Shown: piece after piece, positions 11,163-27,076 of the stretch | How positions within the stretch are numbered: position 1 is the first letter of the stretch | How the letters are laid out: each line of letters begins with the position of its first letter | Assembly (NCBI GenBank): GCA_019244185.1 | Contig: JAFATB010000005.1 | Location: 96,001-160,000 of the forward strand | Direction of reading: 5' to 3' | DNA: 64,000 nt | From: Acidobacteriota bacterium | GTDB lineage: Bacteria; Acidobacteriota; Thermoanaerobaculia; Gp7-AA8 | Program-made: the position numbers and the translations under genes | Notes under the pieces: model-generated | The model's database searches: none | Told to the model about the DNA's origin: nothing | Seen by the model: the letters and a program-made list of their open reading frames with translations, nothing else

Positions 11163-11770
11163 CCCACCCGCCCCTCCCCCGCCCGCGCTTTCATGCGGCG
11201 GATCTCTTCCTGCTCCTGTTGCTGGACGCTGCGCAGGAGCGCGGAGAGGTCGGGTTGGCCGGGCTTCGGCGACGATTTCGTGCCGGGCTGCTGCGGTTGC
11301 GGCTGCGGGTTGTTCTTCCCGTGGCCGCCTTGCTGGCCGCCGCGCGTCGATTGCTGGTCGGCTTGTTTGCGCGCGAGCGCGAGCTCGAGGTTGCGTTTTG
11401 CGCCGGCGTGATGCGGGTTCGCGCGGAGCGCCTCGATGTAGTCGGCGATGGCGTGGTCGAGCGCTTTGGCGGCGAAGGCGCTGTTGCCGCGGTTGAAGAA
11501 TGCATCGGCGCGAAGCTGCGGATCGCGCAGCGCGGGCTGCAGCGTCGTCGAGCCTTGCTCGCGTTGTCCGGCGGCGATCTGCGCGGTGCCGAGGTTGAAG
11601 GCGGATTGCGCGGACGGCGCCAGTGCGTTCGCGCGCGTGAACGACTGCACGGACTGCGCGTACTGCTGCTTCGCGTACGCCTGCGCGCCGCGCGCGCTCG
11701 CGGCGTGCGAGTTCGTGTCACGCAGGAACGCGCCGAGGCTGATCGCGGCGAGGATCACGAGCGGCTTCAT
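11156..11770 (-). CDS. TPR protein, BatC-like
   Basis: FNLGTA/FNRGNS TPRs, AKRNLELAL, Q-rich tail, terminal W; ATGA coupling with the upstream gene. Confidence 0.85.
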   Translation of the reverse strand: MKPLVILAAISLGAFLRDTNSHAASARGAQAYAKQQYAQSVQSFTRANALAPSAQSAFNLGTAQIAAGQREQGSTTLQPALRDPQLRADAFFNRGNSAFAAKALDHAIADYIEALRANPHHAGAKRNLELALARKQADQQSTRGGQQGGHGKNNPQPQPQQPGTKSSPKPGQPDLSALLRSVQQQEQEEIRRMKARAGEGRVGW

Positions 11771-12720
11771 TCGGCACCTCGATGCGCGAGCGAGCCGAGG
11801 AAGAAGGCGACGAAGGCGAAGCCGAGCGCCCACTGGTAGCGATCGACCGGCACGCGCGCAACGGTCTCGCGCGCCTTCGCCACGCGCGCGCTGCCGAGGA
11901 GCGGATCGAGCGCGTGCGCCGCGAACGGGTTCTCCAGCATCGTGCCGCCGGTGCCGTTTGCGATGTCGCGCAGGACGTCGCCGCGCGCGTAGGTCGTTAC
12001 GACGTCGCCCGTCGCATCGCGCAGCGGCCCGTGTCCGGTCGGAATCGTGGCGCCGTTCGCGGAGCCGAGGAGGATCGTCGACACGGGCACGCCACGCGTC
12101 TTCGCGCGCTGCACGGCTTCGGCGACGCGCGCTCCTTGTTCCTCGCCGTCGCTGATCAGCACGAGATCGGCTTTTTGCGAGGGATCGCTGTCGATGAGGC
12201 GGAGCGAGCCGAGGATCGCGCTGCCGAGGTCCGAGCCGGGCTCGCCGACCTCGCCGGCCTGCAGCGTGTCGACGAGCGCGAGCACCGCGTCACCGTCGCT
12301 CGTGAGGGGCGAAACGACTTCCGGCTCTGACTCGAAGACGACGAGCCCGATCCGTCCTTCCTGCGCGTCGATGAGCCGCTTCGCGATCGCTTTGGCCGCG
12401 TCGAGGCGCGAGGCACCGACGTCTTCGGCGGCCATGCTGTTCGAGACGTCGATGAGGATGACGCGATTCGCTTCGCGCGCGACGACCGGCATCAGCGTGT
12501 AACCGGCGTACGGCCCCGCAAGCGCGACGACGGACGCGGCGAGCGCGACGCCGAGGAGCCACGGACGCAGCGCGCGCGCGGGCATGGTCACGCCGCGCAG
12601 ACGCTCGCTCGCGAAGCGCCGCGCGAGGCGAATGCGCGTGCGCTCGCGCGTCACGAGGAACAGCAGCGCGAACGGCACGAGCGCGAGGAGCCAGAGCAGC
12701 AGCACGTCGCGGAAGCTCAT
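11767..12720 (-). CDS. VWA domain protein, BatB-like
   Basis: N- and C-terminal TMs; MIDAS DVSNSM; LISDGE. Confidence 0.88.
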   Translation of the reverse strand: MSFRDVLLLWLLALVPFALLFLVTRERTRIRLARRFASERLRGVTMPARALRPWLLGVALAASVVALAGPYAGYTLMPVVAREANRVILIDVSNSMAAEDVGASRLDAAKAIAKRLIDAQEGRIGLVVFESEPEVVSPLTSDGDAVLALVDTLQAGEVGEPGSDLGSAILGSLRLIDSDPSQKADLVLISDGEEQGARVAEAVQRAKTRGVPVSTILLGSANGATIPTGHGPLRDATGDVVTTYARGDVLRDIANGTGGTMLENPFAAHALDPLLGSARVAKARETVARVPVDRYQWALGFAFVAFFLGSLAHRGAE

Positions 12721-13724
12721 GCCGGCACCTTCAGCCAGAGCGTCTCGCCGCCGAGGAGCGACAGCGCGAGCAGCGCGAGCGCGGCACCGAGCGGCCAGAC
12801 GTACAGCTCGTCGATCTGCTCGCGCTTCGGCGCGGTGAGGCGCGTCTTCTCGAGCGCGTCGATGCGCTTGAGCACCGCGCCGAGCGCCTGCGCGTCCGTC
12901 GCGCGGAAGAACGCGCCGCCGGTCGTCGACGCGATCGCTTCCAGCGTCTTCTCATCGAGCTCGCCGCGGATGTGCGTGTAGATCGTCTCGATCGCGCCGG
13001 TGAACGGATTCTGCCGCTTCACCGGCAGCGGCACCGGACCTTCCGAGCCGACGCCGATCGTGTAGACCTTGATGCCCGCGGCGGCCGCGAGTTGCGCGGC
13101 GACGAGCGGATCGATCGAGCCGGAGTTGTTGACGCCGTCCGTCACGAGGATGACCACGCGGCTGCGCGTCTTCGAGTTGCGCAGGCGGTTGACGGCCGTG
13201 GCGAGCGCGTGGCCGATCGCGGTGCCGTTGCCGTGCTCGCCGATCTCCGCCTTCGCGAGCACGGCTTCGATGATGCGGCGGTCGTACGTGATCGGCACGC
13301 GCGTCGCCGCGCGGCTGCCGAACGTCACGATGCCGATGCGATCATCGGTGCGGCGGCGGATGAAGTCGCCGATCAGCTCTTTCGCGACGGCGAAGCGGTT
13401 GCGCGGACGAAAGTCTTCCGCGGCCATGGAGCCCGAGGCGTCGAGCGCGACGACGATGTCGATGCCGTAGCGGTCGCTCGCCGCGAGGCGCACCACGCGC
13501 TGCGGACGCGCCAGCGCGACGACGAGCAGCAGCATCGCCAGCGTCTCCAGTGCGAACGGCAGCGCCGCCGTCATGACACGCAGTCCCGGCGCCGGCGCGA
13601 CGAGCGCGAGCGACGAGTAACCGAACGCGCCGACGCGCTGCCGCCGGTCGCGGACCACAAGCGCGACGCGCGCGGCCACCGCAAGCGCGAGCGCGAACCA
13701 CAGCGGATCAGCGAAACGCGTCAT
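12717..13724 (-). CDS. VWA domain protein, BatA-like
   Basis: MTRFADPLW; LARPQ; DASGSM; GTAIG; LVTDG; YTIGVG; start trimmed from 14123. Confidence 0.9.
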   Translation of the reverse strand: MTRFADPLWFALALAVAARVALVVRDRRQRVGAFGYSSLALVAPAPGLRVMTAALPFALETLAMLLLVVALARPQRVVRLAASDRYGIDIVVALDASGSMAAEDFRPRNRFAVAKELIGDFIRRRTDDRIGIVTFGSRAATRVPITYDRRIIEAVLAKAEIGEHGNGTAIGHALATAVNRLRNSKTRSRVVILVTDGVNNSGSIDPLVAAQLAAAAGIKVYTIGVGSEGPVPLPVKRQNPFTGAIETIYTHIRGELDEKTLEAIASTTGGAFFRATDAQALGAVLKRIDALEKTRLTAPKREQIDELYVWPLGAALALLALSLLGGETLWLKVPA

Positions 13725-14467
13725 GCCGCCCGCTCCGTCGCAGCGATCGGCGGCGGCTCCGGCGGCGGAATGAGCGCCAGCGCGTCCGCAGCCACCGCAT
13801 CGAAATCGCGCTCCTCGGCGCCCGACGTCGAGAACTTTTCGAGATCGCCCTGCCGCAGGATCATGGCGACGGCGTCGCGCTCGTCGCCGAGTCGCGGCAG
13901 CAGCTCGCTCGTGGTCAGCTCGCGGCCGAGTCCCGCACGCGTTGCCGCGAGAAACACGCGCGTCTCGTCGGCGAGGCGCGACCAGCGCAACGGCTCGAAC
14001 GGATGCGCGCGCAGCGCGTCGATCGCGCGGCGGAAACGCTCGTCCGGCGGCAGCGCGGGAACCGTTGCAGCCATCGTCTGCTTCGCGCGACGCCACACGA
14101 GCAGCCAGACGCCGAGCGCGCAAAGCGCCGCGATCGCGATCGCGACGAACGGCAGGCGCGGATACGCCGTCGCGCGCGGCGGCGCGAGCGGCGCGGGCTT
14201 GCGGTCGTCGTTCGGCTTCAGCACCGAATGCATCGGCACGACGAGGTTGCGAAAGTGCACGCCGCGCACGACGCCGCTGAGCGCGAACGGTTTCGGATCG
14301 AACGTGCGCACCACGACGTCCGCGCCGCGCTGCGACACGATCTCGTACGCGGGCGAGGCGTCCAGCGTCACCGGGCCGTCGAAGTGGATCGCGATCGGAT
14401 CGCCGACCGTCGGCGCGGCCGGTTGAAACGTCGCGGTGATCGCCAGTGCGAGAACGGGAAGGATCAT
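13721..14467 (-). CDS. Membrane protein of the Bat operon (single TM, TTSEL/DLEKF region)
   Basis: Start MILPVLAL coupled to the DUF58 stop; usual position between DUF58 and BatA. Confidence 0.75.
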   Translation of the reverse strand: MILPVLALAITATFQPAAPTVGDPIAIHFDGPVTLDASPAYEIVSQRGADVVVRTFDPKPFALSGVVRGVHFRNLVVPMHSVLKPNDDRKPAPLAPPRATAYPRLPFVAIAIAALCALGVWLLVWRRAKQTMAATVPALPPDERFRRAIDALRAHPFEPLRWSRLADETRVFLAATRAGLGRELTTSELLPRLGDERDAVAMILRQGDLEKFSTSGAEERDFDAVAADALALIPPPEPPPIAATERAA

Positions 14468-15369
14468 GCCGGTCGGTGCTGGCGCGCGCTCCGCTCGCGG
14501 AAGAAGCGCAGCAACGCGCGGTCGTAGGGAACAGCCGTGGACACGGCGAGGTGATCGATGGCCGACGCGCGCAGCCGACGCTCGAGCTGCGTGCGCCGCA
14601 GCGCGCCGCTTTGCGCGACGCCGGAACGCCGCAGATCGACGAGGCGCGCGCCGCCGCTCTCGAGATCGACGAGCCGCGCCAGCCCGCGGTCGGGAAAGCG
14701 CTCCTCGCGCGGATCGACGATCGGCACGGCGATGACGTCGTGCTTGCGGTTGAGGCGCTTGAGCGGCCGCTCGAACGCGATTTCGAGAAAGTCCGACAGC
14801 ACGAGCACGACCGCGCGCTTCACCGCGACGCGTTCGAGAAACCCCGCGGCGAGCTCGAGGTCCGCGCGCCCGTGCGGCCCGCGCATGGCCGCGTCCACCG
14901 CCGCGCGCACGAGGACTTGCGCGTGCGCTCGTCCGCGCCGCGGCGGGATGTACGCGCGGATCGCATCCGAGAACAGCAGCAGCCCGACGCGATCGGAGTT
15001 CTCGACCGCGGAGAACGCGAACACGGCCGCGAGCTCCGCCGCGAGATCGCACTTGCGCCAGTCCACCGAGCCGAACGCCATCGAGCCGGAGACATCAACC
15101 GCGATGAGGATCGTGAGGTCGCGCTCTTCGATGAACTCCTTGACGTGCGGCACGCCGCTGCGCGCGGTGACGTTCCAGTCGATCGTGCGGATGTCGTCGC
15201 CGGGCAGATACTCGCGCACCTGCGAGAACTCGATGCCGCGGCCGTGAAACGCGGAGTGGTAGTCGCCCGCGAAGCCCGCGCGGATCATGCGCGCCGAGAC
15301 GAGCTCGAGGTCGCGCACGCGCCGCACGACCGGCGCGCGCAGGTCGGGAGTCCGGCGCCGGAACCTCAC
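14464..15369 (-). CDS. DUF58 domain protein
   Basis: GRGIEFSQVREYLPGDDIRTIDWNVTAR; DVSGSM; VLSDF. Confidence 0.92.
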   Translation of the reverse strand: MRFRRRTPDLRAPVVRRVRDLELVSARMIRAGFAGDYHSAFHGRGIEFSQVREYLPGDDIRTIDWNVTARSGVPHVKEFIEERDLTILIAVDVSGSMAFGSVDWRKCDLAAELAAVFAFSAVENSDRVGLLLFSDAIRAYIPPRRGRAHAQVLVRAAVDAAMRGPHGRADLELAAGFLERVAVKRAVVLVLSDFLEIAFERPLKRLNRKHDVIAVPIVDPREERFPDRGLARLVDLESGGARLVDLRRSGVAQSGALRRTQLERRLRASAIDHLAVSTAVPYDRALLRFFRERSARQHRPA

Positions 15370-16340
15370 GGCACCGCGACCGCTCCCAGGATCTGGTCGA
15401 GGATGCGATCGGCCGGCATCTGCTCCGCCGCCGCCTCGTAGCTGAGCACGAGCCGGTGCCGCAGCACGTCGTGAGCGACGGCCTTGACGTCTTCCGGCAC
15501 GACGTACGTGCGCCCGCCGAGGAACGCGTGCGCTTTCGCAACGTGCGCGAGCGCGAGCGTGGCGCGCGGAGACGCGCCGAACGAGATCAGGTTTGCCAGC
15601 GACGGCAACCGAAAGTCTGCCGGCCGGCGCGTGGCGTTCACGAGCTGCACGATGTACCGGCCGATGCGTTCGTCGGTGTGCACGCTCGCCGCGAGTTTCG
15701 CGACGCGATGAATCTCGTCGATGCCGAAGACGCGCTGCACGCCGACGCTCTCGCGCGTCGGATCGAGATACAACCCGAGCATCCGCAGCTCTTCCTCCGC
15801 GCTCGGATACTCCACCTTCAGCTTCATCACGAACCGATCGACCTGCGCCTCGGGTAACGCATACGTTCCCTCGTGCTCGATCGGGTTCTGCGTGGCGATC
15901 ACGACGAACGGATCCGGCAGCGCGTACGACTGATCGCCGATCGTCACCTGCCGCTCCTGCATCGCCTCGAGCAGCGCGCTCTGCACTTTCGCCGGCGCGC
16001 GGTTGATCTCGTCGGCGAGGATGAGGTTCGCGAAGACGGGGCCAAGGCGCGCGTTGAACGTGCGGCCGGCGGGATCGAAGATCTGCGTGCCGGTGATGTC
16101 GGCGGGCAGCAGATCGGGCGTGAACTGGATGCGCTTGAACGTGGCGTCGAGCGCCGACGCGAGCGTCTTCACGAGCAGCGTCTTGGCGAGGCCGGGCAGG
16201 CCTTCGACGAGCACGTGGCCGCGGATCAGAATGGCGATGAGCAGACGGTTGACGATCGCGTCCTGCCCGATGACGACGCGCCCGACCTCGGCGCGCAGCC
16301 GCGCAAGCGTCTCATGAGCCTGTTCGGTGGCTTCCTGCAT
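15366..16340 (-). CDS. moxR: MoxR-family AAA+ ATPase
   Basis: GLPGLAKT, RIQFTPDLLPAD, DEINRA, ATQNPIE and ASPRA motifs. Confidence 0.95.
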   Translation of the reverse strand: MQEATEQAHETLARLRAEVGRVVIGQDAIVNRLLIAILIRGHVLVEGLPGLAKTLLVKTLASALDATFKRIQFTPDLLPADITGTQIFDPAGRTFNARLGPVFANLILADEINRAPAKVQSALLEAMQERQVTIGDQSYALPDPFVVIATQNPIEHEGTYALPEAQVDRFVMKLKVEYPSAEEELRMLGLYLDPTRESVGVQRVFGIDEIHRVAKLAASVHTDERIGRYIVQLVNATRRPADFRLPSLANLISFGASPRATLALAHVAKAHAFLGGRTYVVPEDVKAVAHDVLRHRLVLSYEAAAEQMPADRILDQILGAVAVP

Positions 16341-16366: not shown

Positions 16367-17146
16367 GTGCGCCCGAAGAAAAAGTGGGGTCAAAACTTTC
16401 TCCGCAATCGCGGCGCCGTGGCGAAGATCGTCGAAGCGGTTGACGCACAGCCGGACGAGGTCGTGCTCGAGATCGGCCCCGGCGAAGGCGTGCTCACCGA
16501 AAAACTGGTCGCGCTGCCGAATCCGCTCGTCGCCATCGAGATCGATCCCGAGCTCGCCGCGCGACTGCGCGCGCGTTTCGGCGAGCGGCTGACGCTGCGC
16601 AACGAGGACGCGGTCGACGCTCCGCTGCCGGAGACGCCGTATCGCGCCGTCGGCAACCTGCCGTACAACGTCGGCACGCCGATCCTCCGCCGCGTCATCG
16701 CCGACCCGCACTGCCGCCGCGCGGTGTTCATGCTGCAGAAGGAAGTCGCGGACCGCGTCGTGGCCAAGCCCGGCAGCGATCCGTACGGCTATCTCACGCT
16801 GTACGTCGCCGCGTTCGCGAGCGCGCGCATCGCCATGACGCTCGATCCGCGCTCGTTCCATCCGCCGCCGAAAGTACGCAGCGCCGTGGTCGTGCTCGAC
16901 CCGCGCGATCCGCAGCTGGCCGCCGAGCGCACGCTCGTACTCGATCTCGTCAGCGCGTCGTTCCGCATGCGCCGGAAGAAGCTGGTCAACAACTTGACCG
17001 GTTGGCGGAACCTCACGCGCGAGGACGTGCTGTCCTTGATGCAGCGCGCTGCCATCGACCTCGACGTCCGCGCGGAGACGATGTCGCTCGCCGACTTCGA
17101 CCGCTTCGCCGTCGCCTACTCCGCGCTCGCGTCGCCCGGCTCGTAG
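16367..17146 (+). CDS. rsmA: 16S rRNA (adenine-N6,N6)-dimethyltransferase
   Basis: GQNFL, EIGPGEG, GNLPYN, MLQKEVA, FHPPPKVRS and RRKKL motifs. Confidence 0.95.
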   Translation: MRPKKKWGQNFLRNRGAVAKIVEAVDAQPDEVVLEIGPGEGVLTEKLVALPNPLVAIEIDPELAARLRARFGERLTLRNEDAVDAPLPETPYRAVGNLPYNVGTPILRRVIADPHCRRAVFMLQKEVADRVVAKPGSDPYGYLTLYVAAFASARIAMTLDPRSFHPPPKVRSAVVVLDPRDPQLAAERTLVLDLVSASFRMRRKKLVNNLTGWRNLTREDVLSLMQRAAIDLDVRAETMSLADFDRFAVAYSALASPGS

Positions 17147-18174
17147 CGCCACTCCGTCTCATGCTTCGCCCCCTCGGCGAACCGTGGGTCGACGTAGTCC
17201 TCGAACGCGATGTCATGGTCGAGCACTCCGGTCTCGCGCATCAGCCGGACGATCAGCTCGAAGTCTTTGCGCAGCGGCGTGAGCGGCTGGTACTGCACGC
17301 GTTCGAGCGGCTTCGTCAGCGCCCACTTGAGCAGCTTCGGATCCTGGCGATAGTAGAAGCGGCCGACGAAATCGGCGGCGTGCTCGCGGCGCGCGCGGCG
17401 CTTCGGCGGGTTCTCGAGCCACAGTCCCGACCGCGCGATGCCGTCGACGAGCACCTGCACCGCCTCCGGCCTGCGGTCGATGACGTCCTGCCGCACGACG
17501 AGCACGCAAGAGATGAAGTCCGGCCAGTACTGCCGCGCGTGGAAGAGCACGCGCCCGAAGCCAGCCGACTCGGCCTGCGACGGATACGGCTCGCCCATCG
17601 AGAACGCGTCGATTGCGCCGGCCGCGAGCGCGCCGGCGACGTCCGGCGGCGCCATCTCGACAAGCCGCAGGTCGCGCGCGCTCATGCCGTTCGCCGCCAT
17701 CGCGCGGAAGAGGATCAGCCGCTCGTCCGAGTAGCGGCTCGGCACGGCCACAATCCTCCCTTTCAGATCGGCGAACGAATGCACCGGTCCGTTCTTCTGC
17801 ACGACCACGGCGCTTCCGTAGCGGTGTCCGAGGTAGACGATCTTGATCGGAACGCCCTGAGCACGCAGGGCAATCGCCATCGGCGCGACCATGAACGCCG
17901 CCTGCATCTGGTTCGAGATCAGCGCTTCCTTGATCTCAGGGAACCCCTGGAACATCCGCGGAATGAACAGATGCCCCGACTTCGAGTAGGCGGAGATGTA
18001 GTCGGTGACCGGGCACGCGAGGTGTCACGTGACCGGGATGTAGGCGACGTTGAGCTTGCGCTCGCGTTCCGGCAATCGATCGTTGAGCAGCACCTTCCAG
18101 TCGACGTTCATCGACAGGTGCGCGGCAGTGATGAACGCCAGCCATGCGGCAACGGCGACTCCGATCTTTCGCAC
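17116..18174 (-). CDS. NitT/TauT-type ABC substrate-binding protein with in-frame TGA at codon 50 (candidate selenoprotein; alternatively a nonsense-mutated gene)
   Basis: SD AAAGGAGGAG + GTG at 18174 is in frame with track ORF 17116..17955; single TGA at 18025-18027 in YIPVT*HLACP; NMT1-like C-terminal part (DLKG, GAIDA, EPY). Confidence 0.8.
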
Positions 18175-18196
18175 GCGACTCCTCCTTTCGTTCGTG

Positions 18197-18973
18197 TCAT
18201 TCGTGAAATGCCCAGCGCACCGCGCGCAGCGTCTCGGCGCGGCGGATCAGCGTGTCGAGAATCAGTCCGAGCAGGCCGATGAGCAGCATGCCGCCGACGA
18301 CGAGGTCGTAGCGCTTGCCGGCGTTGCGCGCGTCGATGATGAGATAGCCGAGCCCCGAGTCGACGGCGATCATCTCCGCCGCCACGAGCACGAGCCACGC
18401 GACGCCGAAGGCGATGCGCAGCCCCACCAGAATGCGCGGCAGGATCGCGGGAAAGAGCACGCGCGTGATGAGCGCCCGCGTCGAGAGCCCGAAGTTGCGC
18501 CCCGCCTGCACGTACATCGGCGGCACGTTGCGCACGCCGTTCATCGTGGCCACGATGATCGGGAACACCGAGGCGAGGAAGATGAGGAAGATCGGCGCGA
18601 GATTGCTGACGCCGAACCAGATCACCGCGAGCGGCATCCACGCCAGCGGCGAGATCGGCCGCAGCATCTGAATGACCGGATTCGCCGCGCGCGCGAGCGA
18701 GCTCCACCACCCCATCGCCAGGCCGACCGGAATCCCGATCGCCACCGCCGCGAGATAGCCGCACGCAACGCGGAACAACGAGTCGCCCATGTACGCCCAC
18801 AGCAGTTTTCGTCGTGCGAGCTCGAGCAGTCCGCGCACGACGTCCATCGGCGAGGGAAAGATCTTCGTTCCGCTGACGACGACGGCGAGCGCCCAGAACG
18901 CGAGCAGCACGAGGCCGAGCACGACCGCACGGATGCGTCCTTCTGCCCTCTGCCTTCTGCCTTCTGCCTTCAT
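18197..18973 (-). CDS. ABC transporter permease (NitT/TauT/SsuC type)
   Basis: LRPISPLAW; LVAAEMIAVDSGLG; multiple TMs. Confidence 0.93.
   Translation of the reverse strand: MKAEGRRQRAEGRIRAVVLGLVLLAFWALAVVVSGTKIFPSPMDVVRGLLELARRKLLWAYMGDSLFRVACGYLAAVAIGIPVGLAMGWWSSLARAANPVIQMLRPISPLAWMPLAVIWFGVSNLAPIFLIFLASVFPIIVATMNGVRNVPPMYVQAGRNFGLSTRALITRVLFPAILPRILVGLRIAFGVAWLVLVAAEMIAVDSGLGYLIIDARNAGKRYDLVVGGMLLIGLLGLILDTLIRRAETLRAVRWAFHE
18939..18970 (-). repeat. Heptamer tandem repeat (AAGGCAG x4.5) directly after the permease ATG
   Basis: ATG AAGGCAG AAGGCAG AAGGCAG AGGGCAG AAGG, encoding KAEGRRQRAEG. Confidence 0.9.
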
Positions 18974-19704
18974 ATCTGATGCGCCAGCCCGATCTCCCCG
19001 AAGATCTCATCGCGCAACGCGATGTATCGCGGATCGCTGAGATCGCGCGGATGCGCGAGATTCACGTCGACGACGCGCCGCACGCGTCCGGGCCGCGCTG
19101 ACAGCACGACCACGCGGTCCGCGAGCTGCACCGATTCCTCGATGTCGTGCGTCACGAAGAGAATCGTCTTCCGCTCCGCCTGCCAGATCCGAAGCAGTTC
19201 GCGCCGCATCTGCAGGCGCGTGATGGAGTCGAGCGCGCCGAACGGCTCGTCGAGATAGAGCACGTCGGGATCGACCGCGAGCGCGCGCGCCACTTCGAGC
19301 CGCTGCTTCATGCCGCCCGAGAGCTCGCGCGGATACGAACGCTCGAATCCCTGCAGGCCGACGAGCTGCACGTACCGCGCGATGCGCGCGCGCTTCTCGT
19401 CGTCCTTTTGGCGAAAGAGTCCGAAGCCGATGTTCTCTTCGACCGTGAGCCACGGAAAGACGCCGCGCTCCTGAAAGACGAAGATGCGCCGCGGATCAGG
19501 TCCCGTCACCGGCTCGCCGTCGATGGTGACGCGCCCTTCGGTCGGCGTCACGAATCCGCCCACGATGTTGAGCAGCGTCGACTTGCCGCAGCCAGAGGGG
19601 CCGAGGATGCAGACGAACTCGCCTGCGTTGACCGAGAGGTTGATGTCGTCGAGCACGCGCACGCCGCCGAAGCGCATGCCGATCGAGTCGAAGTGAACCT
19701 TCAT
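18970..19704 (-). CDS. ABC transporter ATP-binding protein
   Basis: GPSGCGKST, LSGGMKQR, YLDEPFGALD, VTHD; start trimmed to MKVHF. Confidence 0.95.
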   Translation of the reverse strand: MKVHFDSIGMRFGGVRVLDDINLSVNAGEFVCILGPSGCGKSTLLNIVGGFVTPTEGRVTIDGEPVTGPDPRRIFVFQERGVFPWLTVEENIGFGLFRQKDDEKRARIARYVQLVGLQGFERSYPRELSGGMKQRLEVARALAVDPDVLYLDEPFGALDSITRLQMRRELLRIWQAERKTILFVTHDIEESVQLADRVVVLSARPGRVRRVVDVNLAHPRDLSDPRYIALRDEIFGEIGLAHQI

Positions 19705-20456
19705 TCCGCGGCGTACCCCCAGCGCACGGATGGCAGCCGTTCGAGCCGGCGCATGAGCAGGTCGAGGCCGATGCCGATGAGACCGATGAGCACCATGCCG
19801 GCGACGACGAGGTCGTAACGGTTGCCGGCATTGCGCGCGTCGACGATGAGAAAGCCGAGACCGGAGTTCACCGCGATCATCTCCGCGGCGACGACGACCA
19901 GCCACGCGATGCCGAGCGTGATGCGCATGGCGACGATGAGCTGCGGAAGGATGCCGGGGACGACGACGCTCCGCACGAGCTCGGCGTGCGAGAGTCCGAA
20001 GTTGCGCCCCGCCGCGAGATGCACGCCTTCGAGGTTGTGCACCGCTTCGACCGTCGCGGTCGTCAGCGGCAGCACCGAGGCGAGGAAGATCAGGAAGATC
20101 GCCGCCGCGTCGCCGACGCCGAACCAGAGGATGCCGATCGGAATCCACGCGAGCGGCGAGATCGGCCGCAGGATCTGCAGGATCGGATTGACCGCGCTGT
20201 CGCCGCGTCGCGAGAGGCCTAACGTGACGCCCGCGGGCACCGCGACGGCGACCGCCGCAAGGTAGCCCCACGTCACGCGGAAGAGCGAGGCCACGACGTA
20301 GCGGACGAGGAGCCCTTTCTCCGCGAGCTCGCCGATCGCGCGCAACGTTTGCCACGGCGTCGGCACGAGCGTGCGCGGCGAGGCCGCGACCGCGAGTTGC
20401 CACGCGGCGACCGCAACAGCGATTCCCAGCAATGGAAGGAGTCGTTTCAGACGCAA
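19701..20456 (-). CDS. ABC transporter permease (second paralog)
   Basis: LRPISPLAW; VVAAEMIAVNSGLG; clear similarity to 18197..18973. Confidence 0.93.
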   Translation of the reverse strand: MRLKRLLPLLGIAVAVAAWQLAVAASPRTLVPTPWQTLRAIGELAEKGLLVRYVVASLFRVTWGYLAAVAVAVPAGVTLGLSRRGDSAVNPILQILRPISPLAWIPIGILWFGVGDAAAIFLIFLASVLPLTTATVEAVHNLEGVHLAAGRNFGLSHAELVRSVVVPGILPQLIVAMRITLGIAWLVVVAAEMIAVNSGLGFLIVDARNAGNRYDLVVAGMVLIGLIGIGLDLLMRRLERLPSVRWGYAAE

Positions 20457-20510
20457 ACTCGGGCGAGAGAGTAGCCGGTTTTGTGACCCCCGTCACGCGC
20501 AGCAAATAAC

Positions 20511-20526
20511 CGGCACCTCGTTTGCT
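20511..20526 (+). promoter_or_regulatory. Sigma-54-type -24/-12 promoter candidate
   Basis: CGGCAC-CTCGT-TTGCT (GG-N10-GC), 15 nt before the GGDEF gene start. Confidence 0.6.
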
Positions 20527-20541
20527 CCGAACGCGCCCTCA

Positions 20542-21498
20542 ATGGCGACCCGCTACGAGACACCCGCACGACGACGGAACGAACTGGAGCCCCCGACTCC
20601 CACGCGCGTTCTCGCCGTTGACGATGACTCCGCTTACCTCCGCCGCCTCGAGGTCGTCCTGACTCGCGCCGGCTTCGACGTCGTGACCGCCTTCGACGGT
20701 CCGACCGCGATCGAGCGCATCCGCGAAGACGGCGACATCGAGATCCTCATCAGCGATCTCACCATGCCCGGCATGGACGGCATCGAGACCGTGCGCCAGG
20801 CACGCACCGCGTGCGCGTTCCCCGGCCTCTACACGATCCTCCTCACCGCGAACGACGGCGCCGACGTGAAGCTCCGCGCGCTCGACAGCGGCCTCGATGA
20901 CTTTCTCACCAAAGCGTCGACCGACTCCGAGATCGTGGCCAAGCTCCGCAGCGCCGCACGACGCCTGGCCATGGAACGCCGCCTCCAGGTCGAAAACGAA
21001 GAACTGCAGACGCTCGCCCTGACCGACGAGCTCACCGGCATCGCCAACCGCCGCGCACTCTTCCGCGCCGCCGAAAGCATCCTAGGCGCCGGCCGCACGA
21101 TGACCGTCGTCCTCTTCGACCTCGACCGCTTCAAGCAGATCAACGACAGCTACGGCCACCTCATGGGCGACCGCATCCTCGCCGACGTCGCCGCCTGCCT
21201 CAAAGCCCACACGCGCGTCGGCGACGTGATCGCCCGCTATGGAGGCGACGAGTTCGTCCTCCTCCTCCCCGACACCCCCACCCCCGAAGCCCGCGCGATC
21301 ACGCAACGGATCCGCGCCAGAATCGCCGCCCTCCGCTGGACCCATTCCGGCAGCGTCATCTCCATCAACCTCGGCACCGGCCTCTCCACGGCCGGCTCCG
21401 CCAGCACCATCGAAACGCTGCTGGCGGAGTCGGACGCAAAGCTGTACGAGGGGAAGGTGGGGAGGCATCAGGAGCTGGATCTTTCGATCCAGCTCTGA
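20542..21498 (+). CDS. Receiver + GGDEF diguanylate cyclase
   Basis: VLAVDDD, ISDLTMPGMDG, TDELTGIANRR, DLDRFKQINDSYGH, RYGGDEF. Confidence 0.94.
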   Translation: MATRYETPARRRNELEPPTPTRVLAVDDDSAYLRRLEVVLTRAGFDVVTAFDGPTAIERIREDGDIEILISDLTMPGMDGIETVRQARTACAFPGLYTILLTANDGADVKLRALDSGLDDFLTKASTDSEIVAKLRSAARRLAMERRLQVENEELQTLALTDELTGIANRRALFRAAESILGAGRTMTVVLFDLDRFKQINDSYGHLMGDRILADVAACLKAHTRVGDVIARYGGDEFVLLLPDTPTPEARAITQRIRARIAALRWTHSGSVISINLGTGLSTAGSASTIETLLAESDAKLYEGKVGRHQELDLSIQL

Positions 21499-23728: not shown

Positions 23729-26700
23729 TCAGGCGGAGATCGTTTGCGCCGGCAAACGCCGCTCGATCGGCCCAAGGACGCGAAGTGCGCCCCAATATTG
23801 AGGCCTTCGGCGGAGCGGACTTGGGGAATGGAGATATTGCAGTTGTGTGCCGCGCAATGCGTCGGCGGCGGTCATTCCGCCGCGGATGCGGCGATGAAAT
23901 GAACTGAAGAAAGTCGCAGCAAACGTATCGTCGATGTCGTACAGAGGAGCGACGACGGCTCCGGCTCCGGCGGCGAGGAAGGCTCGCGCGAGACTGAGAG
24001 AGCCTTCAGCCCTCCGCGTTTTTCCGGTGGCGGTCCTGCAGTTCGCGAGCACGACGAGCGGCTGCCGTCTCAGCGTCCACGAACCGACCGTCTCCGGCGA
24101 CAAGGTCGTCTCCTGCGCGCCGAGCGCAAAACCAGGACCGTCATCGGCACTCGTCGCCGGCTTCGAGTGACCAATGAGGTGAATGACGTCCGCGTCCGTA
24201 GCCGCGGCGCGAATGACGTCCTGCGTCGCCTGCCGGTCGTAGAAACTGGTCGACCGCGGATAGGCCCCGATCACACCACGAGCTTCGGCGTCGGCGCTCG
24301 CCAGCGGCGTGAGCTGGCGATCGCCGCCGGCAGCACGCTCGGCAACCACAAGGACAGTATCTCGTGCTGACGAGGCAGCCGCACCGGAGAGTGCTACCGC
24401 CGCACTCGGTGCGACGATCGCCGCGTGCTGCTCGATCAGGTATTCGCCACGACTTCGGTCGTATAACGCCGAAAACGGCACCTCGTCGTCGAAGGCAGCA
24501 TCCGGAACCAGGACGAGCATCTCGTTTGGACCCACGCGTGCGCGCAAGGCCAACGGCAAGAGCAAGTCGTGGAGGTCGGCAACCGCGCCTTCACACGGCA
24601 AGGAGAGCTGGGCCATGCATGTGGCGACTCGATGCACCGCCGCCGCAACCGTCTCCGTCGGCGCTGCGATCCGCACGCCAATCACATCGTTCGAAGTCAC
24701 ACACCACACGAGCAGCGCGTCCGGCAAGACGGCCCACTCGAGGAGCGCCGTGTTCGCCGGCACCTGCGCGGCGATTGCGCGTGCGTCGTTCTGCGGCGCG
24801 ACATTGCGACGCTCCGCGAGCAGCCGTGCCCGTGAGTGTTCGGCGACGATCAGCGCCTCTCCCCACTCCCCATCGCGCGACAATTCTCCTAGCAGCCGCT
24901 GACTCGCCTCCGCCGCGACGTCGAGATACGAGATCCGCTCCACGGGATTCAGGAGCTCGCGTCGTTGCTGCTCCACGTACCGCAGCGCCGTTCGGAAATC
25001 GGCACGCGCTGCATGCGAATCGCGCAGTTGCTGGTGCGCGATGCCGCGCGCGAGAAACACGTCGGCGACACGAAACGTGTCGGAACGCCGCGCCGTGCGG
25101 CCGAGGTAGCGATTTGCAGCCGTCATGGCGATTGCAGGTTCGGTGGCGGCAATCGTCCGAGCCAAAACCGCGTCGTAGTTCTCGACCGCGCGCTCGCGCG
25201 TCGACGGGTCGGCGATTGCAGTCGCCGCGTAGGACGCGCGTCGAAATGCTGCCTCTGCACGACCGCGCGCGCCAGAACGATGCATAGCGACCGCGTACCA
25301 GAGATCGGCGTCCGCGATCGCAGTCGGATCGCCGCTGACGTTCGCGATCGTCTTGAGCCTGCTCGCCACTGCGACCGCAAGCCGTGGATGCTGGTCATCG
25401 CGCAGCAGAGACTGGAGCATCTCCTGCAGGGAAACATGCAGCCGGTCGTGATCGCCCGCTCGGTACAACCCGGCGATTCCCTCGATGCGCGCCCCCCAAC
25501 CGTCGTCGGCCGCTCGGAGGTACGATGCTCGCTCGGCGATCATTGCCTGGAGAGCGGCAATCGTGTCGGTTTCGCCGGCCTTTGTGAGTTGCGCCAGCGC
25601 CGAGGCGTAGGGACGGCCGGCGGCGCCGGCGCGGTCTGACGCAACGTACGCCAAGCCTTCGATCCATGACAGCCTCGCGTCAAGGGTCGGGTACCGTTTC
25701 GCGTCGTAGGCTGGCGAACCGCGGACGCGCGCGATCTCGCGCAATGCAACGTCGTAGCGTGCGCAATACCACTGCGCACGGGCAGTCGCGAGACGCGAAA
25801 GCCACTCCAGCCGCGTATATGCCCGCAGATGCTCGCTGGCGGCTTCAAGAAGCGTCGCCGCCCGTTGCACATCGGTTTTCTGAAGTTGCTGCCCCTGCCG
25901 CAGTTCCTGTAAGCCGGACGCCGCGCCCGCGGAACCGTTGCGCCGCAGATCCGCCAATGCCGCGGCGAGAAAAGCATCGCCGCGGCGTTCGAACGTGGCG
26001 GCAGCGGTTCGCAGGGCAAAGTCGTCAGAATCCGCTCCATCGACGATCCGCGCCTCTGCGGCGTCGCGCATTTGTCGTGGATGCTCGGCCACGAGGCGCG
26101 CAATCGCCGCCGCGTCGGATCGCGCGATCGCGCGCGCGAGAAGAGCGCCCCCGTCCCACGAGCTGCTGCTGGTCGGCTCATTGAGATCGGATAGCTTCTG
26201 TCGCGCCTCGGTCGCCCAAGGCGACTGCGGATCGAGGCGGAGGTAATCGGCCCAGGCAACCTTTGCGTCCTCCTGAAGACCGACCGCGGTCAGGGCGAGT
26301 GCACGATTCCAGGCGATGGGGGGCGAATGCTCGAGGTTCCATGCTCGCTGGACGCACTCCGCTGCGGCGAGATCATCCGTGCGCGCGCGCGTGTAGAGGG
26401 CGCGCGCCGAATAGGCGGCGGAGAGATCGTTGAGCAACGTAGCGTCTTGCGAGGCGGTGATTGCCGCACTTATCGATGACTGATGCGTCTCACGCGTCAA
26501 CGCTTTTTCGAGCGTCGTGACTGCCGCTCGCGGGTCGCCGAGCAGCAACTCGGCAACGCCGACGGCGTGTAGGTTCTTCGGCGTCGCGTGCGCGTCGGCG
26601 GCATGGCGGATGTCCGCTGCCGCAGCCATGAGCGCCCAGCGATGCTCGTCGCCTTTGTCGCTGCCGTCCTGGCCGCCTTCGCCACCGCGCATGTGGTTGT

Positions 26701-27076
26701 ACTCTTTGTACGAGAAACCTCCGCTCAATCGTCCCTCGATCGGGCGACTCTCGAGATCGTCCGCAGCTGCAATCAGCTTGGCGATATCCGCCGAGCCGGA
26801 ACGGCCGGGCAGGAAACGATAGACGTACAAAGCCGCAATCGCCGCGAGCAGCGCCGCAGTTGCAGCCATCCACCAACGCGAGCGGAAAGGCCGGATTCGA
26901 GTGGGCTGAGCCGCGGTGGAGAGCTCGGTCGCCGTCATGAAGACAGAGCGGCACTCGCCGCAAACACTGACGTGTTCGATTGCCGCGCGGCGGGCGCTCG
27001 CGTCCAATGTGCCATCCGCTAAGCCGGCGAGGGTCTCCGGGTCGAGATGATTGGACGGTTCGGTGAGAGTGCTCAT
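23729..27076 (-). CDS. Zinc-finger anti-sigma (zf-HC2) / TM / TPR / CHAT (caspase-like) protease fusion
   Basis: HLDPETLAGLADGTL...EHVSVCGECR; TM WWMAATAALLAAIAALYVY; helical repeats; VLVPD..VPFSAL, IHLIGHS, LVVLANCRT, SLARAFLAAGA, QYWG. Confidence 0.9.
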   Translation of the reverse strand: MSTLTEPSNHLDPETLAGLADGTLDASARRAAIEHVSVCGECRSVFMTATELSTAAQPTRIRPFRSRWWMAATAALLAAIAALYVYRFLPGRSGSADIAKLIAAADDLESRPIEGRLSGGFSYKEYNHMRGGEGGQDGSDKGDEHRWALMAAAADIRHAADAHATPKNLHAVGVAELLLGDPRAAVTTLEKALTRETHQSSISAAITASQDATLLNDLSAAYSARALYTRARTDDLAAAECVQRAWNLEHSPPIAWNRALALTAVGLQEDAKVAWADYLRLDPQSPWATEARQKLSDLNEPTSSSSWDGGALLARAIARSDAAAIARLVAEHPRQMRDAAEARIVDGADSDDFALRTAAATFERRGDAFLAAALADLRRNGSAGAASGLQELRQGQQLQKTDVQRAATLLEAASEHLRAYTRLEWLSRLATARAQWYCARYDVALREIARVRGSPAYDAKRYPTLDARLSWIEGLAYVASDRAGAAGRPYASALAQLTKAGETDTIAALQAMIAERASYLRAADDGWGARIEGIAGLYRAGDHDRLHVSLQEMLQSLLRDDQHPRLAVAVASRLKTIANVSGDPTAIADADLWYAVAMHRSGARGRAEAAFRRASYAATAIADPSTRERAVENYDAVLARTIAATEPAIAMTAANRYLGRTARRSDTFRVADVFLARGIAHQQLRDSHAARADFRTALRYVEQQRRELLNPVERISYLDVAAEASQRLLGELSRDGEWGEALIVAEHSRARLLAERRNVAPQNDARAIAAQVPANTALLEWAVLPDALLVWCVTSNDVIGVRIAAPTETVAAAVHRVATCMAQLSLPCEGAVADLHDLLLPLALRARVGPNEMLVLVPDAAFDDEVPFSALYDRSRGEYLIEQHAAIVAPSAAVALSGAAASSARDTVLVVAERAAGGDRQLTPLASADAEARGVIGAYPRSTSFYDRQATQDVIRAAATDADVIHLIGHSKPATSADDGPGFALGAQETTLSPETVGSWTLRRQPLVVLANCRTATGKTRRAEGSLSLARAFLAAGAGAVVAPLYDIDDTFAATFFSSFHRRIRGGMTAADALRGTQLQYLHSPSPLRRRPQYWGALRVLGPIERRLPAQTISA

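Follow-up and report, generated by a model that had tools for sequence, protein, structure and literature searches.

An in-frame UGA in an NMT1_2-type ABC substrate-binding protein gene of soil Acidobacteriota, probably read as selenocysteine, with a candidate remote bipartite SECIS

Selenocysteine (Sec)-containing binding proteins of ABC importers have been reported elsewhere, as the initial annotation of this locus stated. SaoB and SaoX were described by Haft & Gwadz (bioRxiv 2022), and a 2026 review of prokaryotic selenoproteomes, in the part of it that was available, names as transporter-binding selenoproteins SaoX, SaoB, SaoP and a BtuF-like protein only. A keyword search of the same text found no NMT1/PF13379-type, SsuA/TauA/NrtA-type or Acidobacteriota selenoprotein. 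According to the accessible part of the preprint (Haft & Gwadz, bioRxiv 2022), SaoB and SaoX carry a Cys-exchangeable Sec in the ligand pocket of an ABC importer's binding protein, their database entries are cut at the TGA, and a metal-ligand role has been proposed; each of these features has an observed or predicted counterpart in the gene described here. In the same partial text, SaoB is likened to binders of polar amino acids (3VVE and 4ZV2, for example), whereas the protein at this locus belongs to a different fold family. The motifs also differ, being CU or TU dipeptides in SaoB and SaoX and U-x-x-x-C here, as does the context, since SAO is a nine-gene locus of strict anaerobes and the present gene sits in a stand-alone four-gene operon of a soil Acidobacteriota bacterium.

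The window, by which we mean the whole 64,000-nucleotide stretch that was analysed (GenBank assembly GCA_019244185.1, contig JAFATB010000005.1, positions 96,001 to 160,000), encodes the substrate-binding protein (SBP) on its minus strand, with the following features.

17116..18174, minus strand: proposed selenoprotein gene for an NMT1_2 / NitT-TauT-type ABC substrate-binding protein, 352 codons, with Sec predicted at codon 50
18179..18188, minus strand: Shine-Dalgarno AAAGGAGGAG, with 4 nt between it and the GTG start, read in the sequence
18174-18172, minus strand: start codon GTG; the stop TAG is at 17118-17116
18025..18027, minus strand: in-frame TGA, codon 50; orthologs have TGC or TGT at that codon
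18013..18015, minus strand: Cys54 codon TGC of the motif U-H-L-A-C, invariant in the subfamily, its third base frozen in Sec forms

Reading and translating the minus strand confirmed the proposal that this Shine-Dalgarno and the GTG at 18174 open a frame that runs through the TGA into a 279-aa ORF. The frame reads MRKIGVAVAAWLAFITAAHLSMNVDW...KLNVAYIPVT-TGA-HLACPVTDY, contains a single TGA and gives a product of 352 residues, of which the 279-aa ORF opened by ATG 17955 (17116-17955) is a part. The TGA is codon 50 (18027-18025) and a Cys follows four residues on (codon 18015-18013), as had been noted. The description of the motif as U-x-x-x-C is likewise correct, since Cys forms of the subfamily have Cys without exception at both positions.

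PF13379 (NMT1_2) matches residues 37-261 of the read-through protein (E 8e-31, 108 bits, cut-off 24.7), which places the TGA inside the domain. The AlphaFold2 model (pLDDT 96.2) has an N-terminal helix at residues 2-23 and a first strand at 42-45; both lie upstream of the TGA, so that the short ORF lacks an export signal and the first strand, in agreement with the earlier claim. The fold is the two-lobe periplasmic-binding type, with Foldseek matches to 3UN6, SsuA, TauA, NrtA and CmpA (E 1e-27 to 1e-15). The remainder of the operon, described beforehand as intact, does contain all three of its other genes, in the order permease, ATPase, permease, SBP; the four make up an ABC importer.

18197..18973, minus strand: ABC permease (BPD_transp_1), directly upstream of the SBP gene
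18970..19704, minus strand: ABC ATPase, its ATG at 19704 overlapping the stop codon of the first permease
19701..20456, minus strand: first ABC permease (BPD_transp_1), its exact start uncertain because it overlaps a divergent GGDEF gene

The same transporter gene order is found at two Cys-form loci (L142 and L135). When gene neighbourhoods were compared across loci, leaving out four GC-rich ones in which ORF calls are unreliable (L072, L100, L116 and L122), the four transporter genes were all that was common to them, and the comparison gave no hint of the cargo. Flanking genes vary, with rsmA, MoxR/VWA and GGDEF at the window locus and pullulanase, GH125 and glycosyltransferases at others. 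No model of NCBIfam release 20 was passed by the SBP at its curated cut-off: SsuA_fam (TIGR01728) gave 120.3 bits against 163.5, TauA 54 against 304 and SaoX (NF040735) 58.2 against 300, and SaoB (NF040727) did not match at E <= 0.01. The SBP belongs to none of the SaoB, SaoX or BtuF-like families. Very probably the protein serves an ABC importer encoded by four genes as its extracytoplasmic binding subunit, has the NMT1_2 / NitT-TauT fold and carries Sec50 in the motif PVT-U-HLAC-PVT.

If seen in one assembly only, an in-frame stop might mark a pseudogene or come from faulty sequencing or assembly, and we evaluated the codon in contigs and in relatives. Contigs of three DNA runs, which may be the source sample, are identical over 18025-18027, and contigs of co-occurring relatives show no difference at the three TGA bases. 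A 727-nt contig from the X24 RNA library also spans the TGA without a difference there, which is no proof of transcription; its 24 differences elsewhere indicate that it comes from a relative. The raw-data check that had been proposed thus confirmed the TGA in assemblies and run contigs. All 29 fetched loci with an internal stop have TGA at the identical codon, as do three more (32/32 genome-search loci), among which are two paralog subfamilies at 49% and 40% identity. Among the best 80 species-genome loci codon 50 is TGA in 43, TGC in 34 and TGT in 3, and the best 80 metagenome loci comprise 19 with TGA and 61 with Cys at this codon, each set being drawn from more than 560 matching relatives in its collection. 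In 201 sampled genomes of the class an ortholog was present in 56, of which 33 have one TGA inside the match; at one locus with a TGA flagged in this way (L070, genome G044) the motif pattern found no match. The homolog check suggested earlier was therefore positive, with TGA or Cys at exactly codon 50 and conservation on both sides. The same TGA is present in dozens of further assemblies and is no product of chance or error. Purifying selection acts on both sides of the TGA and the rest of the operon is intact; a pseudogene or error, to which we give a negligible probability, is already refuted by the comparative sequence data.

Public gene callers treat the codon as a terminator. Many records are 297-aa entries, annotated from the GTG of Val56, and one is a 279-aa entry; the database entries nearest to the protein (84-91% identity) have 297 aa and begin just past the TGA. 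On that reading the gene would yield a 49-residue peptide and a shortened cytoplasmic SBP from the internal GTG (Val56) or from ATG 17955. Such a product would have neither the signal helix nor the first strand and would miss two residues that are invariant in the signature motif, and the NMT1_2 domain spans the TGA. Full-length homologs at 70-86% identity all have Cys at position 50, and the Cys-form orthologs are continuous proteins of ~350 aa. Moreover, the 49 codons upstream of the TGA evolve as coding sequence, third positions varying while the peptide stays constant, and the reading frame is kept across the TGA in every Sec form checked. Termination at codon 50 is accordingly highly improbable.

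The genome carries the Sec machinery whose presence had been proposed as a check. A tRNA-Sec was found (71 bits; ARAGORN anticodon tca, UCA), and selA (479 bits), selB (378 bits) and selD (372 bits) are all above their curated cut-offs, as is selA in 196/201 genomes of the class; the selD of this genome itself contains a TGA. UGA alternating with Cys codons is the classic Sec/Cys signature. Reading of the UGA by a standard tRNA (a Trp or Cys near-cognate), or another recoding that does not involve Sec-tRNA, would fit the absence of a canonical SECIS after the UGA in the bSECIS scan described below. Against this, codon 50 is only ever TGA, TGC or TGT in 80/80 species and 80/80 metagenome loci (the best 80 of each) and never Trp, the full machinery is present, and an RNA structure linked to the Sec forms is conserved. 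We consider decoding by a standard tRNA very unlikely, and these sequence comparisons argue strongly that codon 50 is read as selenocysteine.

We evaluated the region after the UGA for a local SECIS using the bSECIS constraints, with an apical loop 16-37 nt after the UGA as given in the available text of the 2026 review. A local hairpin passed in 1/56 Sec forms and none did so in the window's gene or, by the same scan, in the paralog L068, whereas 27/28 selD genes of the same family passed as a positive control. Rfam gave no match at E <= 1 within 17000-18400. The caution that the local RNA could not be called a canonical SECIS was thus borne out. Of the pairings pointed out at the time, UGCC/GGCA and CCGACU/AGUCGG both exist in the window's sequence but neither is conserved, being complete in 7/56 and 6/56 Sec forms, respectively. 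Single-sequence folding of nt 1-66 (numbered here and below from the U of UGA) gave structures that disagree with one another, RNAalifold consensus structures of nt 1-60 to 1-90 reached just -0.7 to -2.8 kcal/mol, and the mean probability of any local pair was <= 0.24. Three hand-drawn candidates, namely a hairpin at nt 9-25 with loop CCCGGU, a hairpin of nt 18-24 with 30-36 drawn by analogy to the paralog L069, and a pairing of an upstream with a downstream GUSAC, were dropped because their variable bases do not covary in the alignments.

Low synonymous variation was seen, before any folding, at codons +3..+13 and +43..+62, and these two segments are mutually complementary. Sec forms conserve a long-range structure of two parts, P1 and P2.

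17992..18014, minus strand: P1 5' strand (nt 14-36), with paired segments 14-20, 25-29 and 35-36
17876..17899, minus strand: P1 3' strand (nt 129-152), pairing with nt 14-36, ~90 nt of coding sequence being looped out
17853..17872, minus strand: P2, 3 nt beyond P1: hairpin of 7 bp (nt 156-175), loop CGUGCU, a candidate for the SECIS element bound by SelB

For nt 1-200, RNAalifold gave -23.3 kcal/mol with 57 Sec forms (-25.1 with 56) and -1.6 kcal/mol with 51 Cys forms; over nt 201-400, 301-500 and 401-600 Sec forms lay between -1.4 and -3.7 and Cys forms between -2.9 and -7.4 kcal/mol. Standard pairs occupy 99.1% of 1155 pair cells in Sec forms, a share that falls to 30-47% if the partners are shifted by 1-3 columns; in Cys forms they occupy 77.3% of the P1/P2 cells. 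In the first sample, counted on the same Sec forms from which the structure was derived, all 20 pairs of its first version were standard in 51/57 Sec and 0/51 Cys forms. A second sample, collected once the structure had been settled, comes from the same gene family and so is phylogenetically not independent; in it at least 20/21 pairs were standard in 16/19 Sec and 4/61 Cys forms. Third-position synonymous entropy is 0.27 in Sec and 1.19 in Cys forms at 12 sites inside the structure, and 0.91 and 1.01 at 27 sites outside it, a contrast reached by 0/20000 permutations. Pair 36-129, which joins two third-codon positions, covaries in Sec forms (CG 47, GC 2, AU 1, UA 1, UG 1) and is paired in 31% of Cys forms. 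When nt 11-180 of the window's gene are folded by themselves, P1 and P2 are present in the minimum-energy structure as well as in the centroid. P2 alone has -10.8 kcal/mol, and the second base of its loop is a G, with U or G next to it on the 3' side.

The direct covariation is thin, 14/21 pairs being invariant in Sec forms and two-sided changes occurring in one pair only (4 cells). The single-sequence fold is unexceptional for its composition (z -1.5; 13/200 shuffles fold as well), and one Cys form within the window's own family retains 19/21 pairs. On the tree of aligned sequences there are at least 5 Sec/Cys changes, of which only 1 contrast falls on strongly supported branches, so that lineage effects may contribute.

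These data allow us to propose a mechanism in which decoding does not rely on a hairpin adjoining the UGA. The ten nucleotides next to the UGA would stay unpaired, after which nt 14-36 would pair with nt 129-152 to form P1, looping out ~90 nt of coding sequence, and P2 (7 bp, with a G-containing 6-nt loop, nt 156-175) would begin 3 nt past P1. Once P1 is in place, only ~20 nt would have to be travelled between the UGA and the loop of P2, which is within the 16-37 nt of the bSECIS model. P2 would then be presented at the mRNA entrance of a ribosome with the UGA in its A site and SelB could bind there; given the path shortened by P1, P2 would be the SelB-binding element. The candidate agrees with the bSECIS model in loop, stem and energy and departs from it in linear spacing, since P2 lies at a distance of 153 nt and so violates the rule that all natural bacterial SECIS described in the available part of the 2026 review obey. 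A leading ribosome within nt 14-175 would melt P1.

An alternative accepts Sec but has SelB use a weak or irregular local element, for example nt 13-28 with 47-56, leaving P1/P2 to serve mRNA stability, export pausing or slower access of RF2. This looser pairing, with an 18-nt loop, is the minimum-energy fold of short windows of the window's sequence, and at least 5/6 pairs of its 6-bp part are present in 34/56 Sec forms against 6/51 Cys forms. The accessible text of the 2026 review places a subset of bacterial SECIS outside the consensus model, and the thin covariation of P1/P2 also leaves room for such an element. Its loop is large, however, and ~74% of the local cells are paired in Sec forms compared with 99.1% for P1/P2; the 3' arm (codons +15 to +17) lacks synonymous constraint, the frozen 5' arm is equally explained by P1, and the local pair probabilities and consensus energies given above are low. 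We regard the local element as a possible but rather doubtful account, and cautiously favour insertion of Sec directed by the remote, bipartite SECIS formed by P1 and P2, a reading suggested by patterns of conservation.

We also evaluated a possible metal site around residue 50. The best Foldseek match (E 2.4e-27) is 3UN6, a zinc-containing structure of an ABC binding protein from S. aureus, in which Sec50 aligns to a His. Among 55 representatives that have all sites, Asp, Cys or His at position 50 occurs together with His117 and Cys223 in 39, and Ser or Thr50 together with Asn or Ala117 and Asn223 in 5. In the available part of a 2026 paper, the metal in a modelled 3UN6-like SBP is coordinated by two Cys together with one or two His. 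The zinc seen in the 3UN6 structure could be adventitious. Residue 50 is probably a metal-ion ligand together with His117 and Cys223 in the interlobe cleft, with the subfamily-specific Cys54 nearby. The bound metal could either be the cargo or help to hold a small anionic cargo, and Sec in place of Cys at residue 50 would provide a softer, more nucleophilic ligand. The earlier suggestion of capture of a metal, metalloid or sulfur/selenium ligand has gained indirect support only, from the co-varying Asp/Cys/His50-His117-Cys223 triad and the likeness to zinc-bound 3UN6.

Literature searches gave nothing closer than the systems cited here, and we found no comparable selenoprotein family in print. 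The gene adds a selenoprotein family and is common in soil Acidobacteriota, and since public records are shortened to 297 or 279 residues, databases show the protein without its signal helix, its first strand and the residue that matters most. Whether the two more specific proposals hold together, that is, a natural bipartite remote SECIS (~150 nt downstream, in the coding region, with P1 starting 10 nt after the UGA) and Sec as a metal-centre ligand in an SBP widespread in soil Acidobacteriota, we judge to be evenly balanced. If the remote SECIS is real, Sec would be inserted naturally by tertiary instead of linear proximity, and this would account for the failure of SECIS models on some selenoprotein genes of bacteria; the 16-37 nt rule of all bacterial selenoprotein finders would be broken, and they would miss a class of genes. 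A SECIS could then be placed without constraining Sec-adjacent residues, which would be useful for recombinant selenoprotein design. Variation among Sec, Cys, Asp and His at one position of the triad also offers a direct handle on the ligand of 3UN6-like binding proteins.

Among characterised structures, 3UN6 is both the best sequence match (E 5e-23, residues 24-334) and the best structural match (TM 0.88 on the target). Like the window's SBP it has the conserved His117 and Cys223, with a His at the equivalent of residue 50, and its relatives adjoin clade B CO dehydrogenases, a Cys/His metal site having been proposed for the family in the available part of the source. It differs in its 22% identity, in lacking both Sec and a C-x-x-x-C motif, and in its single permease. 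SsuA, TauA, NrtA and CmpA share the fold and Pfam clan of the SBP, and the permeases and ATPase of the operon score well against taurine, nitrate and sulfonate models of the NitT/TauT-like type. Unlike the window's SBP these proteins bind anions without a Cys/Sec motif, and their models all score below curated cut-offs.

P2 resembles canonical bacterial SECIS elements, of which that of E. coli fdhF is an example, in having the 7-bp stem, the 6-nt loop with an early G followed by G or U, and the stability that the consensus model requires. The start of its loop, however, is 159 nt away from the UGA where the model has 16-37 nt, so that P1 would have to bring the two into proximity. The selD genes of the same genomes have a hairpin, GGUCA-GGA-UGACC, 12 nt after their UGA, whereas P2 is remote. 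In E. coli, a far-downstream SECIS reportedly worked when its flank was complementary to the region after the UGA, in work by Su, Li & Gladyshev from 2005. That engineered element was artificial and reportedly of low efficiency, and its architecture is like that proposed for P1/P2. In contrast to it, P1/P2 would be natural, would lie within the coding region and would be conserved across many genera.

Translation from the GTG start, which follows a strong Shine-Dalgarno sequence, gives the substrate-binding gene a 352-codon frame with a single in-frame TGA at codon 50, flanked by the peptide KLNVAYIPVT-U-HLACPVTDYIS. The gene and its operon comprise the following features.

20456-19701, minus strand: second upstream permease
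19704-18970, minus strand: ATPase, upstream
18973-18197, minus strand: permease, upstream of the substrate-binding gene
18188-18179, minus strand: Shine-Dalgarno sequence AAAGGAGGAG, 4 nt before the GTG
18174, minus strand: GTG start of the substrate-binding gene, read directly
18027-18025, minus strand: in-frame TGA, codon 50, from translation
17118-17116, minus strand: TAG stop ending the 352-codon frame

This is the frame proposed in the initial annotation, and the mechanically listed 279-aa ORF (17116-17955) is its tail. The Pfam NMT1_2 match (residues 37-261) spans the TGA. An AlphaFold2 model built from 48 homologs (pLDDT 96.2) places a long N-terminal helix (residues 2-23) and the first strand (residues 42-45) before the TGA, bearing out the suggestion that the 279-aa ORF alone lacks an export signal and the first β-strand. 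Stops and starts within the transporter operon overlap or nearly abut, and the downstream neighbour is a convergent rRNA adenine dimethylase gene.

Elsewhere in the window, a minus-strand row at 11767-16340 resembles a Bat-type aerotolerance operon, in which 15366-16340 encodes a MoxR AAA ATPase, 14464-15369 a DUF58 protein, and 12717-14123 and 11767-12720 each a VWA/BatA-like protein. A response-regulator GGDEF protein (20371-21498, plus strand) is divergent from the transporter operon, and three ORFs lacking a Pfam match lie between it and a 1115-aa TPR-CHAT protein (23729-27076, minus strand).

The Sec machinery on which the initial annotation's selenoprotein proposal depends is present in the source genome (5.3 Mb, 26 contigs, 98.9% complete), which carries tRNA-Sec (Rfam, 71 bits; ARAGORN anticodon tca), selA (479 bits), selB (378 bits) and selD (372 bits, with one TGA of its own). 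The annotation had also allowed that reads might show another codon at this point; contigs from three DNA runs, possibly of the source sample, are identical across the TGA, and contigs of co-occurring relatives and one RNA-library contig show no difference at its bases. Neither a decayed gene, nor a fault of assembly, nor simple termination at the TGA is a tenable explanation.

In protein searches, position 50 is Cys in every full-length relative of about 350 residues (70-86% identity), and very many 297-residue entries (84-91% identity) begin at Val56, just after the TGA, a sign that gene callers stop at the same codon. Public calls for the family are cut to 297 or 279 residues (for example the entries P0004 and P0007); they start after the TGA and bear only the name 'ABC transporter substrate-binding protein', and truncation also affects the sequence that represents the cluster in the 50% library. 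An ortholog (E ≤ 1e-60) was found in 56 of 201 sampled genomes of the class, with one TGA within the match in 33 of the 56; these counts take in two unpublished genomes (G175 and G004). The TGA occupies the identical codon in 29/29 fetched loci (28/28 without the unpublished locus L026). With one flagged locus (L070) left out, the same holds for a genome of a second family and two diverged paralog subfamilies (loci L067-L069). The paralogs, L068 (G153:C19, 49% identity) and L069 (G100:C39, 40%), carry the TGA at the same motif position.

Homologs with TGA or Cys at this position and conservation on both sides, anticipated when the TGA was first noted, were indeed found. Codon 50 is TGA (Sec forms) in 43, and TGC in 34 and TGT in 3 (Cys forms), of the best 80 species-representative loci. 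Record titles are Acidobacteriota, mostly 'Thermoanaerobaculia', to which the Cys forms add Bryobacteraceae, Acidobacteriaceae, Vicinamibacterales and one Myxococcaceae MAG. In a metagenome search centred on a diverged Sec form, the best 80 loci comprise 19 with TGA and 61 with Cys, and no other codon occurs at position 50 in either set of 80. Upstream of the TGA, third codon positions vary and the peptide is constant. Of the 201 class genomes, 196 have selA above cut-off (five unpublished genomes included), so Sec forms and Cys forms both occur in Sec-competent hosts. We consider it very probable that the gene encodes a genuine Sec at codon 50.

According to the accessible text of two reviews, bacterial SECIS elements sit directly after the UGA; the consensus in one comprises an apical loop of 3-9 nt with G in its opening two positions, an upper stem 4-16 bp long, 16-37 nt from UGA to loop and a free energy of ≤ -7.5 kcal/mol. 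A hairpin scan by these rules, with selD genes of the same bacterial family as controls, passed 27/28 selD genes and only 1/56 Sec forms. It found nothing in the window's copy, in agreement with the initial annotation, which could call no canonical SECIS there; Rfam likewise gave no match at the locus. The two RNA pairings which that annotation had drawn do exist in the window but are not general, being complete in 7/56 and 6/56 Sec forms. The selD hairpin GGUCA-GGA-UGACC, a canonical SECIS nearly invariant in 28 sequences, lies 12 nt after the selD UGA. In this bacterial family selD is itself a selenoprotein gene, with one TGA in 39/40 matches, one unpublished genome included (loci G000:C6:611614-612546, L016, and L151-L179). 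The scan also passed paralog L069, which has a local hairpin of textbook type (GGUCACC-AGUUG-GGUGACC, nt 18-36), and found no local SECIS in L068. It seems that different subfamilies have arrived at different ways of placing a SECIS.

A sliding count made before any folding identified two quiet synonymous windows in Sec forms, codons +3 to +13 and +43 to +62, which are complementary to each other. RNAalifold of nt 1-200 (numbered from the U of UGA) gave -23.3 kcal/mol for 57 Sec forms and -25.1 for 56, against -1.6 for 51 Cys forms; for nt 201-400, 301-500 and 401-600 the values were -1.4 to -3.7 for Sec forms and -2.9 to -7.4 for Cys forms. The consensus fold contains two elements.

18014-17992 paired with 17899-17876, minus strand: long-range helix P1 (nt 14-20 with 144-152, nt 25-29 with 137-141, nt 35-36 with 129-130)
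17872-17853, minus strand: hairpin P2 (nt 156-162 with 169-175, loop CGUGCU or CGGGCU), 3 nt after P1

Folding nt 11-180 of the window's copy alone yields both, in the minimum-energy as well as the centroid structure, at an energy that is ordinary for the composition (z -1.5). Across 56 Sec forms, a set that excludes the unpublished locus, standard pairs fill 99.1% of 1155 cells, compared with 30-47% when partners are slid by 1-3 columns. Fourteen of the 21 pairs are invariant, five vary on one side only with pairing kept (for example, U20 faces G144 in 40 and A144 in 15), and one departs by two unpaired cells only. In one pair, 36-129, which joins two third-codon positions, both partners change (CG 47, GC 2, AU 1, UA 1, UG 1, other 3). 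For Cys forms, standard pairing over this set of pairs is 77.3%, and 31% of them have a standard 36-129 pair. In the first version of the structure, all 20 pairs were standard in 51/57 Sec forms versus 0/51 Cys forms. Inside the structure, third-position entropy over 12 synonymous sites was 0.27 for Sec forms against 1.19 for Cys forms, compared with 0.91 and 1.01 over 27 sites elsewhere in those 190 nt, a contrast reached by 0/20000 permutations; Sec forms are thus as diverged as Cys forms everywhere but in the structure.

The structure was derived from the Sec forms themselves, and direct covariation support for it is thin. The metagenome loci were collected once the structure had been settled; among them, 16/19 Sec forms versus 4/61 Cys forms had 20 or more of the 21 pairs standard, and pair 36-129 again appeared as CG, GC and UA. 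Among the Sec forms of this sample, U30 occurs with U135 in 6/10 and C30 with C135 in 9/9; loci such as L107, L121, L187 and L189 have TAT at codon +9. These changes would add pairs U30-A136 and A31-U135, lengthening P1, or may simply reflect lower G+C in those lineages. On the tree at least five Sec/Cys switches are needed and only one contrast falls on a well-supported branch, so lineage effects could still lie behind the difference in RNA structure. Locus L260 (G155:C298:1-900), whose product shares 81% identity with the window's protein, carries TGC and so stands as a Cys form in a family otherwise made up of Sec forms. It keeps 19/21 pairs, having lost the closing pair of the P2 loop. Its change from Sec to Cys may have been recent, and the locus would help to date how the RNA structure decays.

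These data allow us to propose a decoding mechanism. With UGA in the A site, the next 10 nt would occupy the mRNA channel and the base of P1 would stand at its entrance, with P2 tethered to it by 3 nt. Once the looped-out 139 nt are skipped, UGA and the P2 loop would be about 20 nt apart, inside the 16-37 nt of the consensus model, and P2 on its own fits that model in loop, stem and energy (-10.8 kcal/mol). From this position, SelB sitting on P2 could bring in Sec-tRNA as it does where the SECIS is canonical. Ribosome traffic could, however, melt P1, and looser local pairing after the UGA is an alternative recoding signal. Provided that codon 50 is read as Sec, comparative sequence leads us to lean slightly towards P1/P2 as a remote SECIS. 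A literature search on SECIS, selB and UGA listed no paper that speaks of long-range base pairing. An engineered E. coli construct of Su, Li and Gladyshev (2005) reportedly had the same geometry.

The protein has the two-lobe fold of NitT/TauT-type binding proteins. Its closest solved relative is 3UN6, both by sequence (E 5e-23) and by structure (E 2.4e-27), followed in structure by SsuA, TauA, NrtA, CmpA, Thi5, ThiY, PqqT and DszB. The motif PVT-C-HL-x-C-PVT is invariant in the subfamily; in relatives further out, position 50 is occupied by Asp, His, Ser or Thr. Among 55 representatives with residues present at all sites, 39 combine Asp, Cys or His at 50 with His117 and Cys223, and 5 combine Ser or Thr at 50 with Asn/Ala117 and Asn223. 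As read from these alignments, the co-variation is the pattern of a three-residue metal site, and 3UN6, solved with zinc, has His at position 50 and conserves the His and Cys partners. On 3UN6-like proteins encoded next to clade B CO dehydrogenases, the accessible text of one paper proposes metal import, and that of another presents a model in which two Cys and one or two His hold a metal, leaving the cargo open. Sec50 is probably a ligand of a bound metal, which may be either the cargo itself or a cofactor for binding a small anion. Gene neighbourhoods gave no clue to cargo, with only the four transporter genes common to the loci compared.

No curated NCBIfam model passed its cut-off (SsuA_fam, 120 bits vs 163.5; SaoX, 58 vs 300), placing the protein outside SaoB and SaoX, the known Sec binding-protein families described in the accessible text of Haft and Gwadz. 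The family was not found in NCBIfam, in the literature searched or by keyword in the accessible text of a 2026 review, where it may be listed under another name; that review lists a BtuF-like protein as another Sec binding protein. Sec-containing binding proteins are already known (SaoB, SaoX, BtuF-like), and the window's protein represents an apparently new family among them. The more surprising part of the finding is the proposed SECIS architecture, which would be a new form of a known mechanism.
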